Below are positions 1,009 through 10,461 of a DNA stretch of 10,511 bases, in pieces. This DNA comes from a virus. The number at the start of each line of letters is the position of its first letter. Position 1 is the first letter of the stretch. The translations under genes were made by a program, and so were the position numbers. Where the stretch lies: UHGV virus genome UHGV-0048736; one strand, given 5' to 3'. The notes below the pieces were generated by a model that saw nothing but the letters and a program-made list of their open reading frames with translations, searched no databases and had not been told where the DNA came from.

Positions 1009-1225
1009 GGGTCCTTCCTGGAATTATGGACCCGTTACGGGGCGGCGACCTCGCGGTTTTTATCTGTTTATGAAAATTTTTCTGGAAAAAGCATGTCGGT
1101 ACTTCTCGAACATAACTATTTGTTTTTAAATAGATACACAATAAAAAGAAACGACACGGTAATCATCTAAAATGGCGATTTATGACGCTTTCATGTCGTT
1201 TCTCAGTTTTGTTCAATAATTGCGC
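1009..1225 (+). other. Lambda-type cos site, left copy, plus orientation: upstream hairpin, cosN and a cosB-like region with R-site-like motifs
   Basis: Exact lambda cohesive-end 12-mer GGGCGGCGACCT at 1040-1051 followed by CGCGGTTTTT...TTTATGAAAATTTTTCTGG, closely resembling the lambda left end as I recall it. R-site-like motifs: CATGTCGGTACTTCTC (about 1083-1098), GAAACGACACGG (1149-1160) and inverted CATGTCGTTTC (1191-1201). GGGTCC...GGACCC hairpin at 1009-1033. Confidence 0.75.
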
Positions 1226-1896: not shown

Positions 1897-1948
1897 AAAA
1901 ACCGCGAGGTCGCCGCCCCGTAACGGGTCCATATGCCGGAAAGGACCC
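1897..1948 (-). other. Second cosN copy, inverted orientation, collinear with the Nu1-like gene
   Basis: Positions 1897-1933 are the exact reverse complement of 1025-1061 (37/37). cosN GGGCGGCGACCT is on the minus strand at 1907-1918, followed on the minus strand by CGCTATTTATGA as in lambda and then divergent sequence. GGGTCC...GGACCC hairpin conserved at 1926-1948 with a different loop. Confidence 0.75.
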
Positions 1949-4217: not shown

Positions 4218-4392
4218 ATCTGCCTGCAAAGATGTCGAACAAAAATTAACCACAACCATCATCTTTTTTGCATCAAAACAATTAAAAACAATAAATTACG
4301 CTCATGATGATGATGACGATAAAATCACAAAAATGCGCTTTTTTCCGCGCCTCCCGCCCCGTGTTCAGGCCCACCCCGCCAGGAGGACCCGT

Positions 4393-4415
4393 AAAAAAGC
4401 CGGATTGCTCCGGCT
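4393..4415 (-). terminator. Rho-independent terminator after ssb
   Basis: AGCCGGA-ttgc-TCCGGCT hairpin preceded on the plus strand by A6 (4393-4398); 16 nt past the ssb stop. Near-identical to the 1951-1974 terminator. Confidence 0.7.
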
Positions 4416-4430
4416 TCTGTCACTCGTCGC

Positions 4431-4853
4431 TTAAAACGGTATGTTATCCCCGTACGGATCATCATTCCCCGCCTGTTGTTTTGCCCTGTTCAGCGCGTCA
4501 GTAGCCTGGCCCTGTTGACCTTTTTTGCCGCCCAGTCGCGCCGTTCGCGCACTGATTACACTGTCTGCGATAACCTGCCAGCCCTGCCGCGTTTCTCCGT
4601 TCTGCCCAGTCCACTGGCTGATCTGCATGTTACCCGCCACGCTCAGGAGTTCACCCTTGCGGTGCCTTTCCAGTGCTTCGGCCTGTCTGCCAAATGCCAG
4701 GACGGATAACCACATCGTCGCCGTTCCGTCATCTGCCTGGCTGCACGGAAGGGGGACCGCCATACGCGCCAGCGTCATCGGTGTGCCCTTGCTGGTCTGT
4801 TTTACCTGCGGGTCGTCCACCAGCCGCCCGTAAGCGGCTATCTGTGCTGTCAT
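4431..4853 (-). CDS. ssb: Single-stranded DNA-binding protein
   Basis: 140 aa. OB-fold pattern alignable to E. coli SSB (TMWLSVLAFGRQAEALERHRKGELLSVAGNMQISQWTGQNGETR versus [44 protein letters not shown]); Gly/Gln-rich linker; C-terminal tail DDPYGDNIPF like SSB DFDDDIPF. ATGA start/stop overlap with the upstream 85-aa ORF. Confidence 0.8.
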   Translation of the reverse strand: MTAQIAAYGRLVDDPQVKQTSKGTPMTLARMAVPLPCSQADDGTATMWLSVLAFGRQAEALERHRKGELLSVAGNMQISQWTGQNGETRQGWQVIADSVISARTARLGGKKGQQGQATDALNRAKQQAGNDDPYGDNIPF

Positions 4854-5107
4854 GATTCCACCTCTCCGGTTTTAACGTTGATGGTTGTTACCTGTTCCGC
4901 TTCGGCAATCTCCCATTCTGTCAGCGTGGCAAAGTTTGCCGCCGCTGTGGTCATGAATGCGCTTATCAGGTCGGGATGTGCTTTCGCGTATCCTTCCCCC
5001 GTGTTGCGGTCGATGATTTTTATCGCCACTCTCAGCCAGTGCTCTGTAAGGTCAATGGCGCGGTTATGCTGCTTCTTCTGATTATTAAGTTTTCCTGATG
5101 TGCGCAT
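4850..5107 (-). CDS. Hypothetical protein, 85 aa
   Basis: ORF with GAGGGGG Shine-Dalgarno, coupled to ssb by ATGA overlap, immediately downstream of the iteron region. Confidence 0.55.
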   Translation of the reverse strand: MRTSGKLNNQKKQHNRAIDLTEHWLRVAIKIIDRNTGEGYAKAHPDLISAFMTTAAANFATLTEWEIAEAEQVTTINVKTGEVES

Positions 5108-5154
5108 TTTTATTTTTACCCCCTCGTTTAAAAAGTTTTGAGTTGTGCCTCCCC

Positions 5155-5383
5155 TTGTCTACCTTATCAACCTTACTGGCCACCATGCCAGTAATGGCGC
5201 GGCTTTCAGTGGGGTAGAGTGCTTTTATCCACTATCTACCCCGTATCTACCTCCCTGTCTGATTCAGGTAAAATCAGGTAGAGAGGGTAGATAGTAGGTA
5301 GACAGTAAAAAAAGGCTGTCTACCCAAGTTAATGTACTGAATTAAATGTATTTTTCTTTACTCTGGTAGACAGGGTAGACAGC
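5155..5383. repeat. Iteron array with AT-rich spacer: putative replication origin
   Basis: About ten copies of GGTAGA(C/T/G)AG in both orientations (5155-5164, 5213-5221, 5232-5240, 5243-5251, 5277-5285, 5286-5294, 5297-5305, 5316-5325, 5365-5373, 5374-5382). AT-rich stretch at 5326-5360. Directly downstream of the primase/helicase gene. Confidence 0.65.
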
Positions 5384-5395
5384 CATTGCAACAAA

Positions 5396-7144
5396 TTATA
5401 AAAACGCGTCGCAATCGTCTGTTGTTATTGCGTTAGTCTGCGTTACTCCTTTAACTTTCCGCGTAATATATTCATGTCCGTAAACTTTCGCGGCTGGCTT
5501 CATAGCCTTGCCAAAGTCATTTACGTTTAGCGGTTTGCTCCTGCCTGCGTACGCCATAAACGCCAGATAGACGCGGTAAAGGCTGTTTCTGGTCGTGTAC
5601 TTCACTGAATCGCCACCGCCGCCCATCATCAGGCCGCGTGCTTCCTCCAGAAAATTCAGGAACTGGCAAAACTCAATAACCGGATCCGTCTGTTGCTTTA
5701 TTGCCAGTGCTTCATCACCGTCACGCTGTTCAATGAGTAAAGCCCGTGCCTTTTCAGGGTCGGCAAAGTTCGCCAGCAAGCGGCGGATAATGACAGGGAT
5801 TTCAGCCGCGATCTTTTCCGGTAGCTCCCTGTCTTTTTCTGCCTCGCTTACGATGTTATCGAACCGGAATATCACCCGACGACGTGCCACACCTCCGGCC
5901 CGTTCGGTGAATATCATCGGATTGTTATTGGTTGCCAGCACCACCGCCCTGATTACCGCCGTAAAACGCTTTTCATATTTCGGGTTAATTTCCACGGGGT
6001 CGCCGCCCGTGATTTTCTTGATGCCCGTTCCTTCGCCTGTATATTTCGGCTGGTCTGCCAGGACGATAAGACGACTCCCGACAACCTGCGCACGCCCACC
6101 AGCATCATCAAGCGATGTCATTTCAGCGCTTACCGTGTTTTGTTTCCCTGCCAGAAGGCTGGCTATGTGTGTGAATGTACTTTTACCGCTCCCGCCGTCT
6201 CCGGTGGCCTCAATAAACATCTGCCAGTCGTACCGGTTCGCCATAATCATGTACAGCGCGGCACATATACGCATCATCTTGCGCGGGTCTTTTCCGGCTG
6301 CGTGCTCAAGCCATTTATGAAAGTTTGGCGCGTTATCGCGGATGTTCTCCCCGGGTGCTGGTGGCGTGTACTCAATGCCGTTGTGCGTGGTGATCCAGTT
6401 CTCCGGCGTGTGCGGGGAAAATTCCCCCGTTTTCAGGTCAAGCGCACCATTGGCGAACGGCAGCAAATCGCCGGACGGCTCGCCCATTGGTTCGGCAATA
6501 ACTTTTAACGCTTCCACGGCGTTATTGATTACGCGCTTGCTGAAAGTGGCCCTGTGCTCTGAATAGATCGCCACCATTTCGCGGCTCAGCTCCATTGTGC
6601 TGACCGGACACCATACCCCGCCGCGCCATACGTGAACGATTTCACTTTCAGGATGCACACAAACGCCATCAAAGCGCTCGGCAAGCAGCTGCGCACGCTC
6701 ACTGTCTGCCATTTGTGCCAGTTGCGTATTTTTCTGCTCCGGCATGGTAAGCCCTGCGGCAATATTTTCACGCTCAGCATTCAGATAGCGCCGCCAGTTT
6801 TCACACTTCTGGACGTGCATTCCTTCGGGGTAAAAATTTGCGTCCTGAATATCTGCCGCCGCCAGCTTCTGACCAATCTTTTTGGTCTCCACCAAATCCA
6901 GTTCTCCGGCCTGGTACAGCCTTACGCGCTTTTTCCCATCCGGAACAATTTTCAGTGCATCAAGTTCGGCAAGCTGATTTGGCCCAAGCCACACAGGCGG
7001 CACATTATCGCCGGATGCGGGGCCATCCTGCTCCTGCCATTGTTTCGCGTGCGACCAGGCATCACTACCCGCGAAAATAATTACCTCTGTGTCTTTGTGT
7101 TTTATTCCGCGTGGCTGTTTTTTTACGTTCGGTGCCAGTTTCAT
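5396..7144 (-). CDS. Replication protein: primase / SF3 (D5- or P4-alpha-type) helicase
   Basis: 582 aa. Walker A EATGDGGSGKSTF, downstream Walker B-like hydrophobic stretch (RLIVLADQP) and C-terminal region typical of P4-family primase/helicase; N-terminal roughly 250 aa is primase-like. ATGA overlap with the upstream 99-aa gene; CAGGGG Shine-Dalgarno. Confidence 0.9.
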   Translation of the reverse strand: MKLAPNVKKQPRGIKHKDTEVIIFAGSDAWSHAKQWQEQDGPASGDNVPPVWLGPNQLAELDALKIVPDGKKRVRLYQAGELDLVETKKIGQKLAAADIQDANFYPEGMHVQKCENWRRYLNAERENIAAGLTMPEQKNTQLAQMADSERAQLLAERFDGVCVHPESEIVHVWRGGVWCPVSTMELSREMVAIYSEHRATFSKRVINNAVEALKVIAEPMGEPSGDLLPFANGALDLKTGEFSPHTPENWITTHNGIEYTPPAPGENIRDNAPNFHKWLEHAAGKDPRKMMRICAALYMIMANRYDWQMFIEATGDGGSGKSTFTHIASLLAGKQNTVSAEMTSLDDAGGRAQVVGSRLIVLADQPKYTGEGTGIKKITGGDPVEINPKYEKRFTAVIRAVVLATNNNPMIFTERAGGVARRRVIFRFDNIVSEAEKDRELPEKIAAEIPVIIRRLLANFADPEKARALLIEQRDGDEALAIKQQTDPVIEFCQFLNFLEEARGLMMGGGGDSVKYTTRNSLYRVYLAFMAYAGRSKPLNVNDFGKAMKPAAKVYGHEYITRKVKGVTQTNAITTDDCDAFL

Positions 7145-7445: not shown

Positions 7446-7673
7446 TTATTCTCCGGTGTGCTGCGCTTTATTATTCTCGTGAATTGCCATCACTGTATTT
7501 AATTCATTAATAACAGGCGTTAATAGCGTACGCACGGCAGAAAACATCATTGAATCAGATTCATCGCCACTTTCCGGCACATCAATTAACTTAAGTAGTA
7601 ATGCGTCCATTTCCTTTGCGCGGATTAATGCGTTTTCAGAATGAACAAGAACATCAAAGGGTATTTTATGCAT
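7446..7673 (-). CDS. Hypothetical protein, 75 aa
   Basis: ORF with CAGGGGGTGAG Shine-Dalgarno; acidic small protein; 5-nt gap to the next gene. Confidence 0.55.
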   Translation of the reverse strand: MHKIPFDVLVHSENALIRAKEMDALLLKLIDVPESGDESDSMMFSAVRTLLTPVINELNTVMAIHENNKAQHTGE

Positions 7674-7869
7674 GACTCACCCCCTGGCGAATACGGGCAG
7701 CGAATACCATCACGCAGCCATCAGGAGATTGCTGACGCGCTTCCTGTTCGCTGGTGGCCTCAATGGTAATCACGCGCGGTTGTGCAGTGCTCAGGGTGAT
7801 AAAACGCCAGATGTATTTATTCAGGTTGTGCGAGTCCCGCCCTTGCGGGTGTGTGGTATGATTTCTCAT
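7666..7869 (-). CDS. Hypothetical small protein, 67 aa, first gene of the leftward early operon (possibly Icd-like; weak)
   Basis: Taken from the internal ATG at 7869 (GAGG Shine-Dalgarno 6-9 nt upstream) of a spurious 305-aa ORF. The position upstream of the primase mirrors the P4 left operon. The YIWRF...EQEARQ pattern is reminiscent of Icd-like proteins, but that is from memory only. Confidence 0.45.
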   Translation of the reverse strand: MRNHTTHPQGRDSHNLNKYIWRFITLSTAQPRVITIEATSEQEARQQSPDGCVMVFAARIRQGVSHA

Positions 7870-7965
7870 AGCTACCTCGATACTTTCGCTATCGTTGGTG
7901 GTTAGAAGCCCGGTTAGTGTTAGCGCACTGCCGGGTTTCGTCGTTTCTGCACCTTGCGCCAACAA

Positions 7966-8020
7966 GGTGTTGAACACCAATTTAAACCCAGGTGTTAAAC
8001 ACGTCAAGTGTTGAACACTT
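7966..8020. promoter_or_regulatory. Three operator-like palindromes (GTGTT-N-AACAC) in the divergent control region
   Basis: GGTGTT-G-AACACC (7966-7978), GTGTT-A-AACAC (7992-8002), AAGTGTT-G-AACACTT (8006-8020). A possible sigma70 promoter (TTGAAC -35 inside site 3, CATACT -10) faces the plus-strand regulator gene. Confidence 0.6.
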
Positions 8021-8068
8021 ATTTTTTTTCCTGCATACTGCATTTGTTTTTTATGAGGGGTACACCAC

Positions 8069-8248
8069 ATGGCGACAAAAGCAGTAAACGCAAAATCACA
8101 AACCGTTGCGGCAAGGGTTCCGCATGAAGTTATGAACAATGTTGAGGCGGTAAAAATGCCTGGCGAAAGTACGGGGCAATTTGTTACTGCGGCATTAAAA
8201 CGAGAAGTTGAATATCGCCAGCGGCGCAAGGCCAAAGAACCAGAGTAA
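8069..8248 (+). CDS. Small putative DNA-binding regulator, 59 aa (possibly ribbon-helix-helix)
   Basis: Not in the ORF track because it is under 60 aa. ATG at 8069 with GAGGGG Shine-Dalgarno 8 nt upstream; stop TAA at 8246-8248. Translation MATKAVNAKSQTVAARVPHEVMNNVEAVKMPGESTGQFVTAALKREVEYRQRRKAKEPE has a strand-helix-helix-like pattern and a basic tail. Sits immediately downstream of the operator triplet. Confidence 0.6.
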   Translation: MATKAVNAKSQTVAARVPHEVMNNVEAVKMPGESTGQFVTAALKREVEYRQRRKAKEPE

Positions 8249-8290
8249 TCACCATCAGCGCCGTGGTGTAAGGTATTACGGCGCATTGCT

Positions 8291-8479
8291 ATGCAGGACA
8301 ACACAATGACCGATAAAGAATTGACCAAAACATTATCACCGGCACGGAAAAGACGGCGCAGAAAGATAGAGCATGAATCAGAAAGATTCGCGCCATGTGC
8401 TTTTGCCCTTGAGCAATTCCTTAAAGAGTACAGGGAAAAGCGCTCATTGCAGGTATGGCAACGAACTGAACCAGACTGA
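8291..8479 (+). CDS. Hypothetical small protein (62 aa, or 57 aa from the ATG at 8306)
   Basis: ORF downstream of the small regulator gene and upstream of the plus-strand terminator. An AGGA Shine-Dalgarno-like motif favours the 8306 start. Arg-rich, no recognisable motif. Confidence 0.3.
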   Translation: MQDNTMTDKELTKTLSPARKRRRRKIEHESERFAPCAFALEQFLKEYREKRSLQVWQRTEPD

Positions 8480-8546
8480 TTGCATTGCCCACCAGCCGCA
8501 AATGTGGCATTGTTGGTGATGCGTTCAAGTTTAGTGTGTATCCATT

Positions 8547-8573
8547 GGCGACCGCCCCCGGTCGCCTTTGTTT
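8547..8573 (+). terminator. Rho-independent terminator of the rightward regulatory transcript
   Basis: GGCGACC-gccccc-GGTCGCC hairpin (8547-8566) followed by TTTGTTTT. Confidence 0.65.
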
Positions 8574-8593
8574 TATATGTCATATGCTCCCCT

Positions 8594-9222: not shown

Positions 9223-10461
9223 TCAAGAATTTTGGGGGTAAATTCGCGGGGTCATAACAACGATTTTTTCATCATTGTTCTGGAGAAGCTCGAGACGGTC
9301 TACCCATAGATTAAGAGCATCACGTTTTGCATCAAGGTAGCGGGAGTGGTTATAGACTCGTTGCATCCCTGGCATCTGGTGGGCTGTAAGCTGCTCGACA
9401 ATATGCGGATCCACGCCTAAATCGTTCAGTATGGTTGTAAATGTGTGCCGGATATCGTGTAACGTCCAGGGGGCTTGATTAATTCGTCTGTGCGCTGTTC
9501 TTCCGTACTCTGCTACCGAAGATTGTCCTTTCAGTTCACCAAGCAATAAGCCTGTGTGTCTGTTCTGCTCCACCAGTTGCGTGACGAACGGCAAAATGCT
9601 TTCCGGTATTGGCCTGAATATGGCGACCTTCGTTTTGCTGTGCTCCTTCGGTACTGTCCAGAGCATTTCTTTAAAATCCCACTCCTGCACCTCAGAGCGC
9701 CTTAGCTCAGTGGTACGGCATCCAAAAACAATCAGGAGGCGAATTAGGGCGCTGTAGTATGGCGGGAATATTTTGTCATCCAGGGCGCGGAGTAATTCCC
9801 CAAGCTCCTTATTTGTTAGTACGCGCTCGCTCACTTCTGCTTTTTTTCCCACATCACCGACAACCATATCATCAAGAACGTTGCTGATTGCGTATCGTCG
9901 TTTTCGGCAGTACTTAAGCGCCTGTTTGCATACCTGTAGCAAAAATCCGGCAGATACTGGGCTTCGCTTTGCCATCTGGTCAAAACATGCCAACCAGTGC
10001 CGTAGCTCGCATTTTTCCAACGGCAAAGCGCCAATCTGGCTGATTATGTGTTTATTGATCCGGCTTTTCAGTGATTCGTAGTCAGTGCGCTTTTCCTTTG
10101 CATACGATTCAAGCCAGTAAGTGAGCGCTTCCTTAACTGTCACGGGGGCTAACGCATCCTGTACAGCACGATTAAGCTCATAGCGCGGATTTTTCCCCTC
10201 AGCCAGCCAGGCGCGACACTGTGCTGCTTTTTCCCTGGCTGCTTTCAGGCTCAGATCGGGATAATTGCCCAGTCTCAGACGTTCCGGTGATACCTGCCTA
10301 CCAGTTCCGGCCCTGTAAGTGAAATACCAGGTTAACAGGCCGCTGGTGGAATGTCTTACGCTAAGATTGCCACCGTCATTAAAAAAGGCGTTTTTTGTGG
10401 TTGGTGATCCGCTTAATTTTCGTAAAAGAGTGTCGCTAAGTCTATGAATTGCGCTGCTCAT
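9223..10461 (-). CDS. int: Tyrosine site-specific integrase, P4-type
   Basis: 412 aa. C-terminal catalytic region with HDIRHT (His-x-x-Arg) and a downstream tyrosine (RVYNHSRYL); N-terminal region typical of the P4-integrase arm-binding domain. Start codon 25 nt from the right att repeat. Confidence 0.93.
   Translation of the reverse strand: MSSAIHRLSDTLLRKLSGSPTTKNAFFNDGGNLSVRHSTSGLLTWYFTYRAGTGRQVSPERLRLGNYPDLSLKAAREKAAQCRAWLAEGKNPRYELNRAVQDALAPVTVKEALTYWLESYAKEKRTDYESLKSRINKHIISQIGALPLEKCELRHWLACFDQMAKRSPVSAGFLLQVCKQALKYCRKRRYAISNVLDDMVVGDVGKKAEVSERVLTNKELGELLRALDDKIFPPYYSALIRLLIVFGCRTTELRRSEVQEWDFKEMLWTVPKEHSKTKVAIFRPIPESILPFVTQLVEQNRHTGLLLGELKGQSSVAEYGRTAHRRINQAPWTLHDIRHTFTTILNDLGVDPHIVEQLTAHQMPGMQRVYNHSRYLDAKRDALNLWVDRLELLQNNDEKIVVMTPRIYPQNS

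Follow-up and report, generated by a model that had tools for sequence, protein, structure and literature searches.

An iteron array 3' of pri-rep as the probable replication origin of the Escherichia coli island EcCIIHE3034

The repeat array at positions 5155-5382 of the DNA analysed here (10,511 bp, hereafter the window) is very probably the vegetative replication origin of a Gram-negative phage-inducible chromosomal island (PICI), namely EcCIIHE3034 or an identical copy of it, located at cspD-clpS in Escherichia coli. This assignment is supported by published experiments on the almost identical sequence of EcCICFT073. The array is not new, since the 99%-identical sister copy was described and experimentally tested in 2018 and the island of the window was named in the same study (Fillol-Salom et al. 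2018, PMC6092414).

The island and its repeat array

The window is the reverse complement of positions 920406-930916 of E. coli IHE3034, with 10510 of 10511 positions identical. The island is integrated between cspD and clpS, and the att core ATGATAGTTAT is found at window position 92. The IHE3034 locus is listed as the PICI EcCIIHE3034 by Fillol-Salom et al. (2018, ISME J, PMC6092414, Table S1). The hallmarks of a PICI are present in the window, including int, alpA, pri-rep, cos sites and a specific att site. All window genes are on the minus strand, and the features relevant here, in gene order, are as follows.

9223-10461, minus strand: tyrosine integrase, the first gene in the order
Between integrase and pri-rep, minus strand: AlpA-type regulator, followed by small ORFs including those for an Icd-like protein and a DUF4222 protein
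5396-7144, minus strand: pri-rep, encoding a putative 582-aa initiator-helicase with D5_N, SF3 P-loop (DUF5906) and Pox_D5 C-terminal domains
5155-5382, both orientations: the whole iteron array (PICI ori), 11 iterons in two inverted modules, within the published Δori deletion
5113-5139, minus strand: invariant 27-nt leader containing the Shine-Dalgarno region (AAAACTTTTTAAACGAGGGGGTAAAAA) for the ORF that follows, adjoining the array and outside it
4850-5107, minus strand: 85-aa conserved hypothetical protein (phrog_1231), the first gene past the origin, WP_001260558.1 in PA45B, CFT073 and IHE3034
4431-4853, minus strand: island-encoded SSB (Pfam SSB, 5e-15)
Beyond the SSB gene, minus strand: lambda-E-type major capsid protein, decoration protein and small terminase

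Two perfect lambda-type cosN sites (GGGCGGCGACCT) lie in inverted orientation at 1040-1051 (plus strand) and 1907-1918 (minus strand), with the small-terminase gene between them. Each is contained in a 65-bp repeat, the two repeats being 89% identical, and the sequence at 1034-1127 is 90% identical to the cos region of phage 21. The pair agrees with the cos1 and cos2 sites described for EcCICFT073.

Two other regions of the island were noted. The noncoding 170 bp between the SSB gene and the capsid operon (4228-4397) are 88 to 91% identical to unannotated DNA of Stx-converting phages and VT1-Sakai. On the minus strand at 7666-8583, a mechanically predicted 305-aa ORF has a repressor-like C terminus but is not one gene in RefSeq, where this DNA is divided among an Icd-like gene, a BRO-N pseudogene fragment and, on the opposite strand, a YlcI/YnfO gene. 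This split annotation suggests a decayed regulatory region.

The hexamer GGTAGA occurs 11 times on both strands of the 10,511-bp window, against an expectation of 2.2. Ten of the 11 copies are confined to 222 bp (5158-5379), and the remaining one stands alone at 9299 within the integrase gene. Together with one degenerate copy, the ten clustered hexamers form an array of 11 iterons at 5155-5382, five on the plus strand and six on the minus strand. The exact 9-mer GGTAGANAG is present seven times (5232-, 5277+, 5286+, 5297+, 5316-, 5365+ and 5374+), and three further copies each deviate at one position of the 3' tail (5155-, 5213+ and 5243-). A sequence-only reading of this DNA had reported about ten copies of GGTAGA(C/T/G)AG in both orientations within 230 bp, with an AT-rich stretch among them. 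The counts agree with that description, and the coordinates it gave, 5155-5383, bracket the array correctly.

The array lies in a 288-bp gap bounded by the pri-rep stop codon and by a small ORF, beyond which comes the SSB gene. Its edge at 5382 is 13 bp past the stop codon (5396-5398). Numbered from the pri-rep side, its parts are the following.

5365-5382, plus strand: iterons 1-2 (GGTAGACAG GGTAGACAG), on the pri-rep-stop side of the A+T-rich spacer, with core columns invariant in five aligned lineages
5325-5364: A+T-rich spacer, the presumed DNA unwinding element, 78% A+T with low duplex stability
5316-5324, minus strand: iteron 3 (GGTAGACAG), opposing iterons 1-2 across the spacer
5277-5305, plus strand: iterons 4-6 (GGTAGAGAG, GGTAGATAG and GGTAGACAG), spaced 9 and 11 bp apart
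5232-5251, minus strand: iterons 7-8 (GGTAGATAG and GGTAGATAC), where the inverted second module begins
5213-5221, plus strand: iteron 9 (GGTAGAGTG), located by the 9-mer search
5173-5212: G+C-rich spacer of the second module, with an invariant CATTACTG at 5189-5196 and a local hairpin (TTACTGGC/GCCAGTAA)
5155-5172, minus strand: iterons 10-11 (degenerate GGTTGATAA and GGTAGACAA), located by the 9-mer search and homologue comparison

The 40-bp spacer at 5325-5364 parts the two initiator-proximal iterons from the other nine, and by nearest-neighbor energy its least stable 30-mer is within the lowest 0.6% of all 30-mers of the window. At the site of the degenerate iteron GGTTGATAA (5164-5172, minus strand), EcCICFT073, BH100N, strain 10 and O103 all have a perfect GGTAGATAA, with an intact GGTAGA.

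The second half of the array (>,>,<,>,>, with start-to-start gaps of 11, 22, 46 and 9) is the first module inverted, minus one iteron. The 46-bp gap of this second module (5173-5212) is conserved and is G+C-rich instead of A+T-rich. Such a conserved G+C-rich spacer is not explained by a simple model in which two iteron sets flank one A+T-rich region.

Conservation was assessed in an alignment of the window, BH100N, strain 10 and O103 WL1467, in which the gap holding the array is about 75% identical. The iteron cores had 54 invariant columns out of 66 (82%), compared with 50 of 179 (28%) for the other columns of the array (Fisher P = 2.5e-14). The 11-iteron layout was kept almost to the base across these lineages, and the C-terminal domain of the initiator was nearly identical. 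Of 5426 complete E. coli genomes, 418 contain the array region; its location is chromosomal in every case, and identities range from 100% down to about 75%. A phage collection gave no match to the origin, even in distant mode, and matches to the whole window in that collection were limited to cos-like sequence and one short unrelated segment.

These data bear on whether the cluster might consist of chance or neutral repeats without function, a reading favored only by the shortness of the motif and carrying a negligible probability. Among 200 dinucleotide-preserving shuffles, the maximum number of GGTAGA hexamers was 6 and none reached the 11 observed. In addition, the iteron cores were invariant where the spacers had diverged. 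The chance reading is refuted by the conservation data and the counts.

Two candidates within or near the array were rejected. A 49-aa ORF on the plus strand (5145-5294) is made of iterons and is unannotated in every RefSeq copy, and it was dismissed as a gene. The other candidate, TTATCCACT (5224-5232, plus strand), lies between iteron 8 and iteron 9 and differs from the DnaA-box consensus at a single position. Because BH100N, strain 10 and O103 do not share this DnaA-box-like sequence, the match was treated as chance and is probably fortuitous. A scan of 4900-5600 gave a single terminator-like match, on the wrong strand and inside the downstream ORF, and no terminator between pri-rep and the array.

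Published evidence from a near-identical origin

The window sequence at 5090-5410 and the region 3' of pri-rep in EcCICFT073 are identical at 319 of 321 positions (99.4%). One of the two base differences spoils iteron 10 in the window, changing GGTAGA to GGTTGA. The origin of EcCICFT073 was described as iterons flanking an A+T-rich region, with the A+T-rich part as the possible melting site (PMC6092414, Fig. 2). The likeness of the two islands covers the position of the origin directly 3' of pri-rep, the 11-iteron layout and the initiator from residue 151 to its end. EcCIIHE3034 differs from EcCICFT073 in its integration site, in having terS, in the absence of perC and in carrying another N-terminal allele of the initiator.

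In the published experiments, a segment containing pri-rep and ori of EcCICFT073 maintained a temperature-sensitive plasmid in DH5alpha at 44 °C with no phage present (PMC6092414). The rep mutant of this plasmid gave no colonies, and the Δori plasmid gave significantly fewer colonies but not zero (PMC6092414). The colonies that remained may reflect residual activity elsewhere or plasmid integration. Overexpression of AlpA in a nonlysogen led to pri-dependent replication of the island (PMC6092414). The sister origin of EcCICFT073 has thus been shown to belong to a replicon that is independent of helper replication proteins (PMC6092414).

The cloning primers in the supplement of PMC6092414 were placed on the window, where the equivalents of 5085 and 5392 mark the ends of the pri-ori and pri-Δori clones, respectively. 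These ends indicate that the published ori deletion is equivalent to window positions 5085-5391 and includes the whole array. The reverse primer rep-2c, as printed, is one C short compared with both genomes and was placed by means of its 3' end as it reads in the genomes. The published forward primer matches CFT073 but not the window, the two islands having different sequences upstream of pri-rep.

The sequence-only reading had proposed a probable origin that would let the element replicate independently of helper replication proteins. Both proposals are borne out by the EcCICFT073 work: rep-ori maintains a plasmid without phage and the loss of ori impairs this, and replication after AlpA overexpression in a nonlysogen depends on pri. 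The cloning test suggested along with them, in which the array fragment would be combined with the initiator supplied in trans, has essentially been published for EcCICFT073 with regard to rep-dependent maintenance and the impairment caused by ori deletion, but in the published plasmid test ori was in cis with rep (PMC6092414).

Initiator protein and iteron specificity

The predicted product of pri-rep was matched by the Pfam families D5_N (2e-15), DUF5906 (5e-10) and Pox_D5 (8e-5) and by the TIGR01613 'P4 family' model (8.5e-32). Residues 186-430 matched PDB entry 7OLA, labeled 'DNA primase' (3e-15), which we take to be the SaPI5 primase-helicase PriRep5. Residues 486-574 matched PDB entry 1KA8, the origin-binding domain of the P4 alpha protein (1e-6), and are accordingly predicted by homology to form a winged-helix origin-binding domain. 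The initiator thus appears to pair an SF3 helicase with a winged-helix domain for iteron binding at its C terminus, as is characteristic of PICI and SaPI initiators.

Residues 151-582 of Pri-Rep are 100% identical to those of EcCICFT073 Pri-Rep, whereas residues 1-150 are about 65% identical by a rough reading of the alignment. Residues 1-150 (window 6695-7144) are thus a mosaic region of a protein annotated as a primase. The N-terminal ~125 residues are 60% identical to the N terminus of the RepA-type protein of EcCI042; this match to an otherwise unrelated initiator indicates that the N terminus is a shared module. No primase domain was detected in the N-terminal 150 residues with Pfam (E ≤ 10) or NCBIfam. 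A single-sequence AlphaFold2 model of the N terminus was weak (pLDDT 59) and showed an alternating strand-helix pattern. A Foldseek search of the PDB with this weak model gave no hit at E ≤ 1e-3, and only generic Rossmann/flavodoxin-like folds appeared. As judged by these searches, the 'primase' label is not supported by a detectable catalytic domain, and the recognizable parts are the D5_N/SF3 helicase and the origin-binding domain only. The earlier placement of the array downstream of a primase/helicase gene is correct for the helicase-initiator, whose gene does adjoin the array.

The proposed course of replication combines the literature on EcCICFT073 with homology to better-known initiators. 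A helper phage would turn on AlpA and the rightward operon, as reported for EcCICFT073. The C-terminal winged helix of Pri-Rep would then bind the GGTAGA iterons, as suggested by its homology to P4 alpha and SaPI Rep and by the covariation of iteron word and initiator allele. Pri-Rep on the two flanks of the 40-bp A+T-rich spacer (5325-5364) would melt the spacer, and its SF3-type helicase part may load itself as a hexamer with no separate loader, as SaPI Rep does. Replication would presumably be completed by host polymerase, probably host primase, and the SSB of the island. Concatemers would finally be cut at the cos sites of the island and packaged by the helper, in line with the literature. 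By analogy with SaPI Rep, binding by Pri-Rep, melting of the spacer and self-loading are all likely.

The relation between iteron word and initiator was compared for three initiator types, represented by the words GGTAGA, TGTTCACC and AAGTGAG; a fourth Pri-Rep allele, that of EcCIED1a (NC_011745.1), was left out of this comparison. Islands with a near-identical C-terminal initiator domain all have GGTAGA. EcCIRM13514, whose initiator domain matches 1KA8 at 1e-23, has TGTTCACC/GGTGAACA iterons 3' of rep, nine of them exact (11 to 12 including one-mismatch variants). EcCI042, with an initiator of the RepA-family helicase type, has six copies of AAGTGAG 3' of rep. The iteron word of each island clusters almost exclusively 3' of the rep gene of that island. 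As in the PICI and SaPI families, the iteron word thus appears to be specific to the initiator allele. Since the N-terminal ~125 residues are common to the EcCI042 protein, the iteron reader must sit in the helicase/C-terminal part.

The AlpA protein of EcCI042 is 100% identical to that of a capsid-forming PICI (cf-PICI, with its own full set of head genes) in CP088587.1. This cf-PICI has an initiator of the window type (91% identical) and eleven GGTAGA iterons. Identical AlpA proteins therefore occur with different initiators and different iterons, indicating that the repeats follow the initiator and not AlpA.

This comparison weighs against the repeats being operators for AlpA, or for another island regulator, that control the downstream operon (hypothetical gene, SSB and capsid genes). 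Such a role is very unlikely, although the array is just upstream of the next ORF and the 27 nt preceding that ORF are invariant. The invariant 27-mer is outside the repeats and resembles a ribosome-binding leader. No sigma-70-like promoter was found in the scan of 4900-5600, and the published target of AlpA is its own promoter (PMC6092414).

CP088587.1 is also of note in itself. It was deposited as a 32,560-bp circular 'plasmid', pD17EC0246-3, described as nonmobilizable, and the genes around its cf-PICI are ordinary chromosomal ones (clcB, mlc, asr, mdtIJ, pntAB and ydgH). It is either an assembly artifact or a chromosomal circle maintained by the PICI replicon.

Relation to P4, SaPI and iteron plasmid origins

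The array had been likened to the ori/crr of satellite P4 in its placement relative to the alpha gene. On the P4 map, crr (4291-4590) is directly 3' of alpha (4636-6969), and ori (~9300-9420) is on the opposite side of the operon. The array of the window is therefore placed like crr and not like ori, and it is a single cluster, whereas in P4 ori and crr are separate parts kilobases apart.

The internal layout gave a different picture. Read in the direction of the initiator gene, iterons 1-6 of the window (5277-5382) are oriented <,<,>,<,<,<, with start-to-start gaps of 9, 46, 22, 11 and 9. In P4 ori (9300-9420) the orientations are identical and the gaps are 10, 43, 22, 11 and 10, and the module of EcCIRM13514 (8055-8180 of the locus analyzed) has gaps of 10, 43, 20, 12 and 8. 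The P4 arrangement of two iterons, an A+T-rich interval of 43 to 46 bp, one reversed iteron and three more is thus reproduced by iterons 1-6 of the window. The P4 analogy is partly right, in that the position corresponds to crr and the first six iterons correspond to ori proper.

The iteron word of P4, TGTTCACC, was taken from the GenBank annotation and sequence of P4, because a literature search on that word gave no paper. It is absent from the window, where the word is GGTAGA(C/T)AG, and GGTAGA is absent from the P4 sequence. EcCIRM13514, a sister PICI allele, has the iteron of P4 itself. In alignment, P4 ori and the EcCIRM13514 module scored far above shuffled controls (z = 14.7), whereas P4 ori and the window module aligned weakly (z = 2.9). 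This weak score is attributed to the difference in iteron word. P4 shares with Pri-Rep the homology of the origin-binding domain (1KA8), but P4 alpha is a 777-aa protein with a primase domain, compared with 582 aa and no recognizable primase domain for the initiator of the window. The resemblance to P4 in layout and binding domain is real, although the different word and the lack of a bipartite arrangement place the window origin outside the P4 type.

The crr-like position raises the possibility that the array is a cis element to which the initiator binds so as to enhance replication or to control it by copy control or handcuffing, and that synthesis starts elsewhere in the island. The array is exactly where P4 has crr, directly 3' of the initiator gene, and the published deletion lowered plasmid establishment without abolishing it. 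This alternative is nonetheless improbable. The array is the sole iteron cluster in the island, the only other GGTAGA being the lone copy in int, and an A+T-rich unwinding element lies between opposed iterons inside the array. Furthermore, the first six iterons match P4 ori, and not a crr unit, in count, orientation and spacing. An origin remains the preferred interpretation of the array.

The organization of SaPI origins is closer. As summarized in PMC9371898 for Ubeda et al. 2007 and later work, the origin of SaPIs, the Gram-positive PICIs, has hexamer-scale iterons directly downstream of rep that are divided by a central A+T-rich region and are oppositely oriented on its two sides. The summary describes SaPI Rep as an SF3 helicase whose C-terminal winged helix reads the iterons and which melts A+T-rich DNA without ATP and loads itself. 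The window likewise has short iterons, 11 copies of the GGTAGA core where 6 to 12 copies of a 5- to 6-nt core are typical, in two sets that flank an A+T-rich region and face each other across it. It differs from SaPIs in that the iteron words are unrelated, in the presence of two inverted modules, the second with a G+C-rich spacer, and in the N-terminal domain of the initiator, which is not a recognizable primase.

Iteron plasmids (pSC101, R6K, RK2 and P1) and the lambda origin also have an initiator that acts on repeats beside an A+T-rich unwinding element. Their repeats are direct and 17 to 22 bp long, they have conserved DnaA boxes, and the helicase is a separate protein, DnaB, with a loader. 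In contrast to the Rep_3/pSC101 type, in which DnaA/DnaC load the host DnaB, the repeats of the window are 6 to 9 bp long and occur in both orientations, and the initiator is itself the helicase. The only DnaA-box-like sequence of the window is the nonconserved match described above. Taken together, the origin of the window is closest to the PICI/SaPI-type family and not to P4.

The organization of PICI origins was called unique to PICIs by Fillol-Salom et al. 2018 (PMC6092414). A literature search found no paper discussing the likeness of PICIs and P4 in ori layout and binding domain. The PICI array may be a derivative of the P4 ori module that is located directly behind the initiator gene and is present twice in inverted orientation; we regard this reading, taken as a whole, as evenly balanced between true and false. 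If it holds, specificity would have been reset by a joint change of the winged-helix domain and two iteron bases (GGTGAACAG to GGTAGACAG). P4-like satellites and the PICIs of E. coli would then be one replicon family exchanging domain-plus-iteron cassettes, and the same N-terminal 125-residue module would be joined to either an SF3-type or a RepA-type helicase.

Three aspects of the present analysis are mildly new. These are the base-level map of the 11 iterons, the natural variants that tie the iteron word to the helicase/C-terminal part of the initiator and not to AlpA or the N-terminal domain, and the finding that the iteron layout is the same as that of P4 ori, which bears on whether the replicons of PICIs and P4-like elements have an independent or a shared origin. 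For the biology of the islands, the origin lets the satellite amplify without the replication proteins of its helper before it hijacks the helper capsids. This self-amplification makes the origin central to the spread of virulence genes by such islands.
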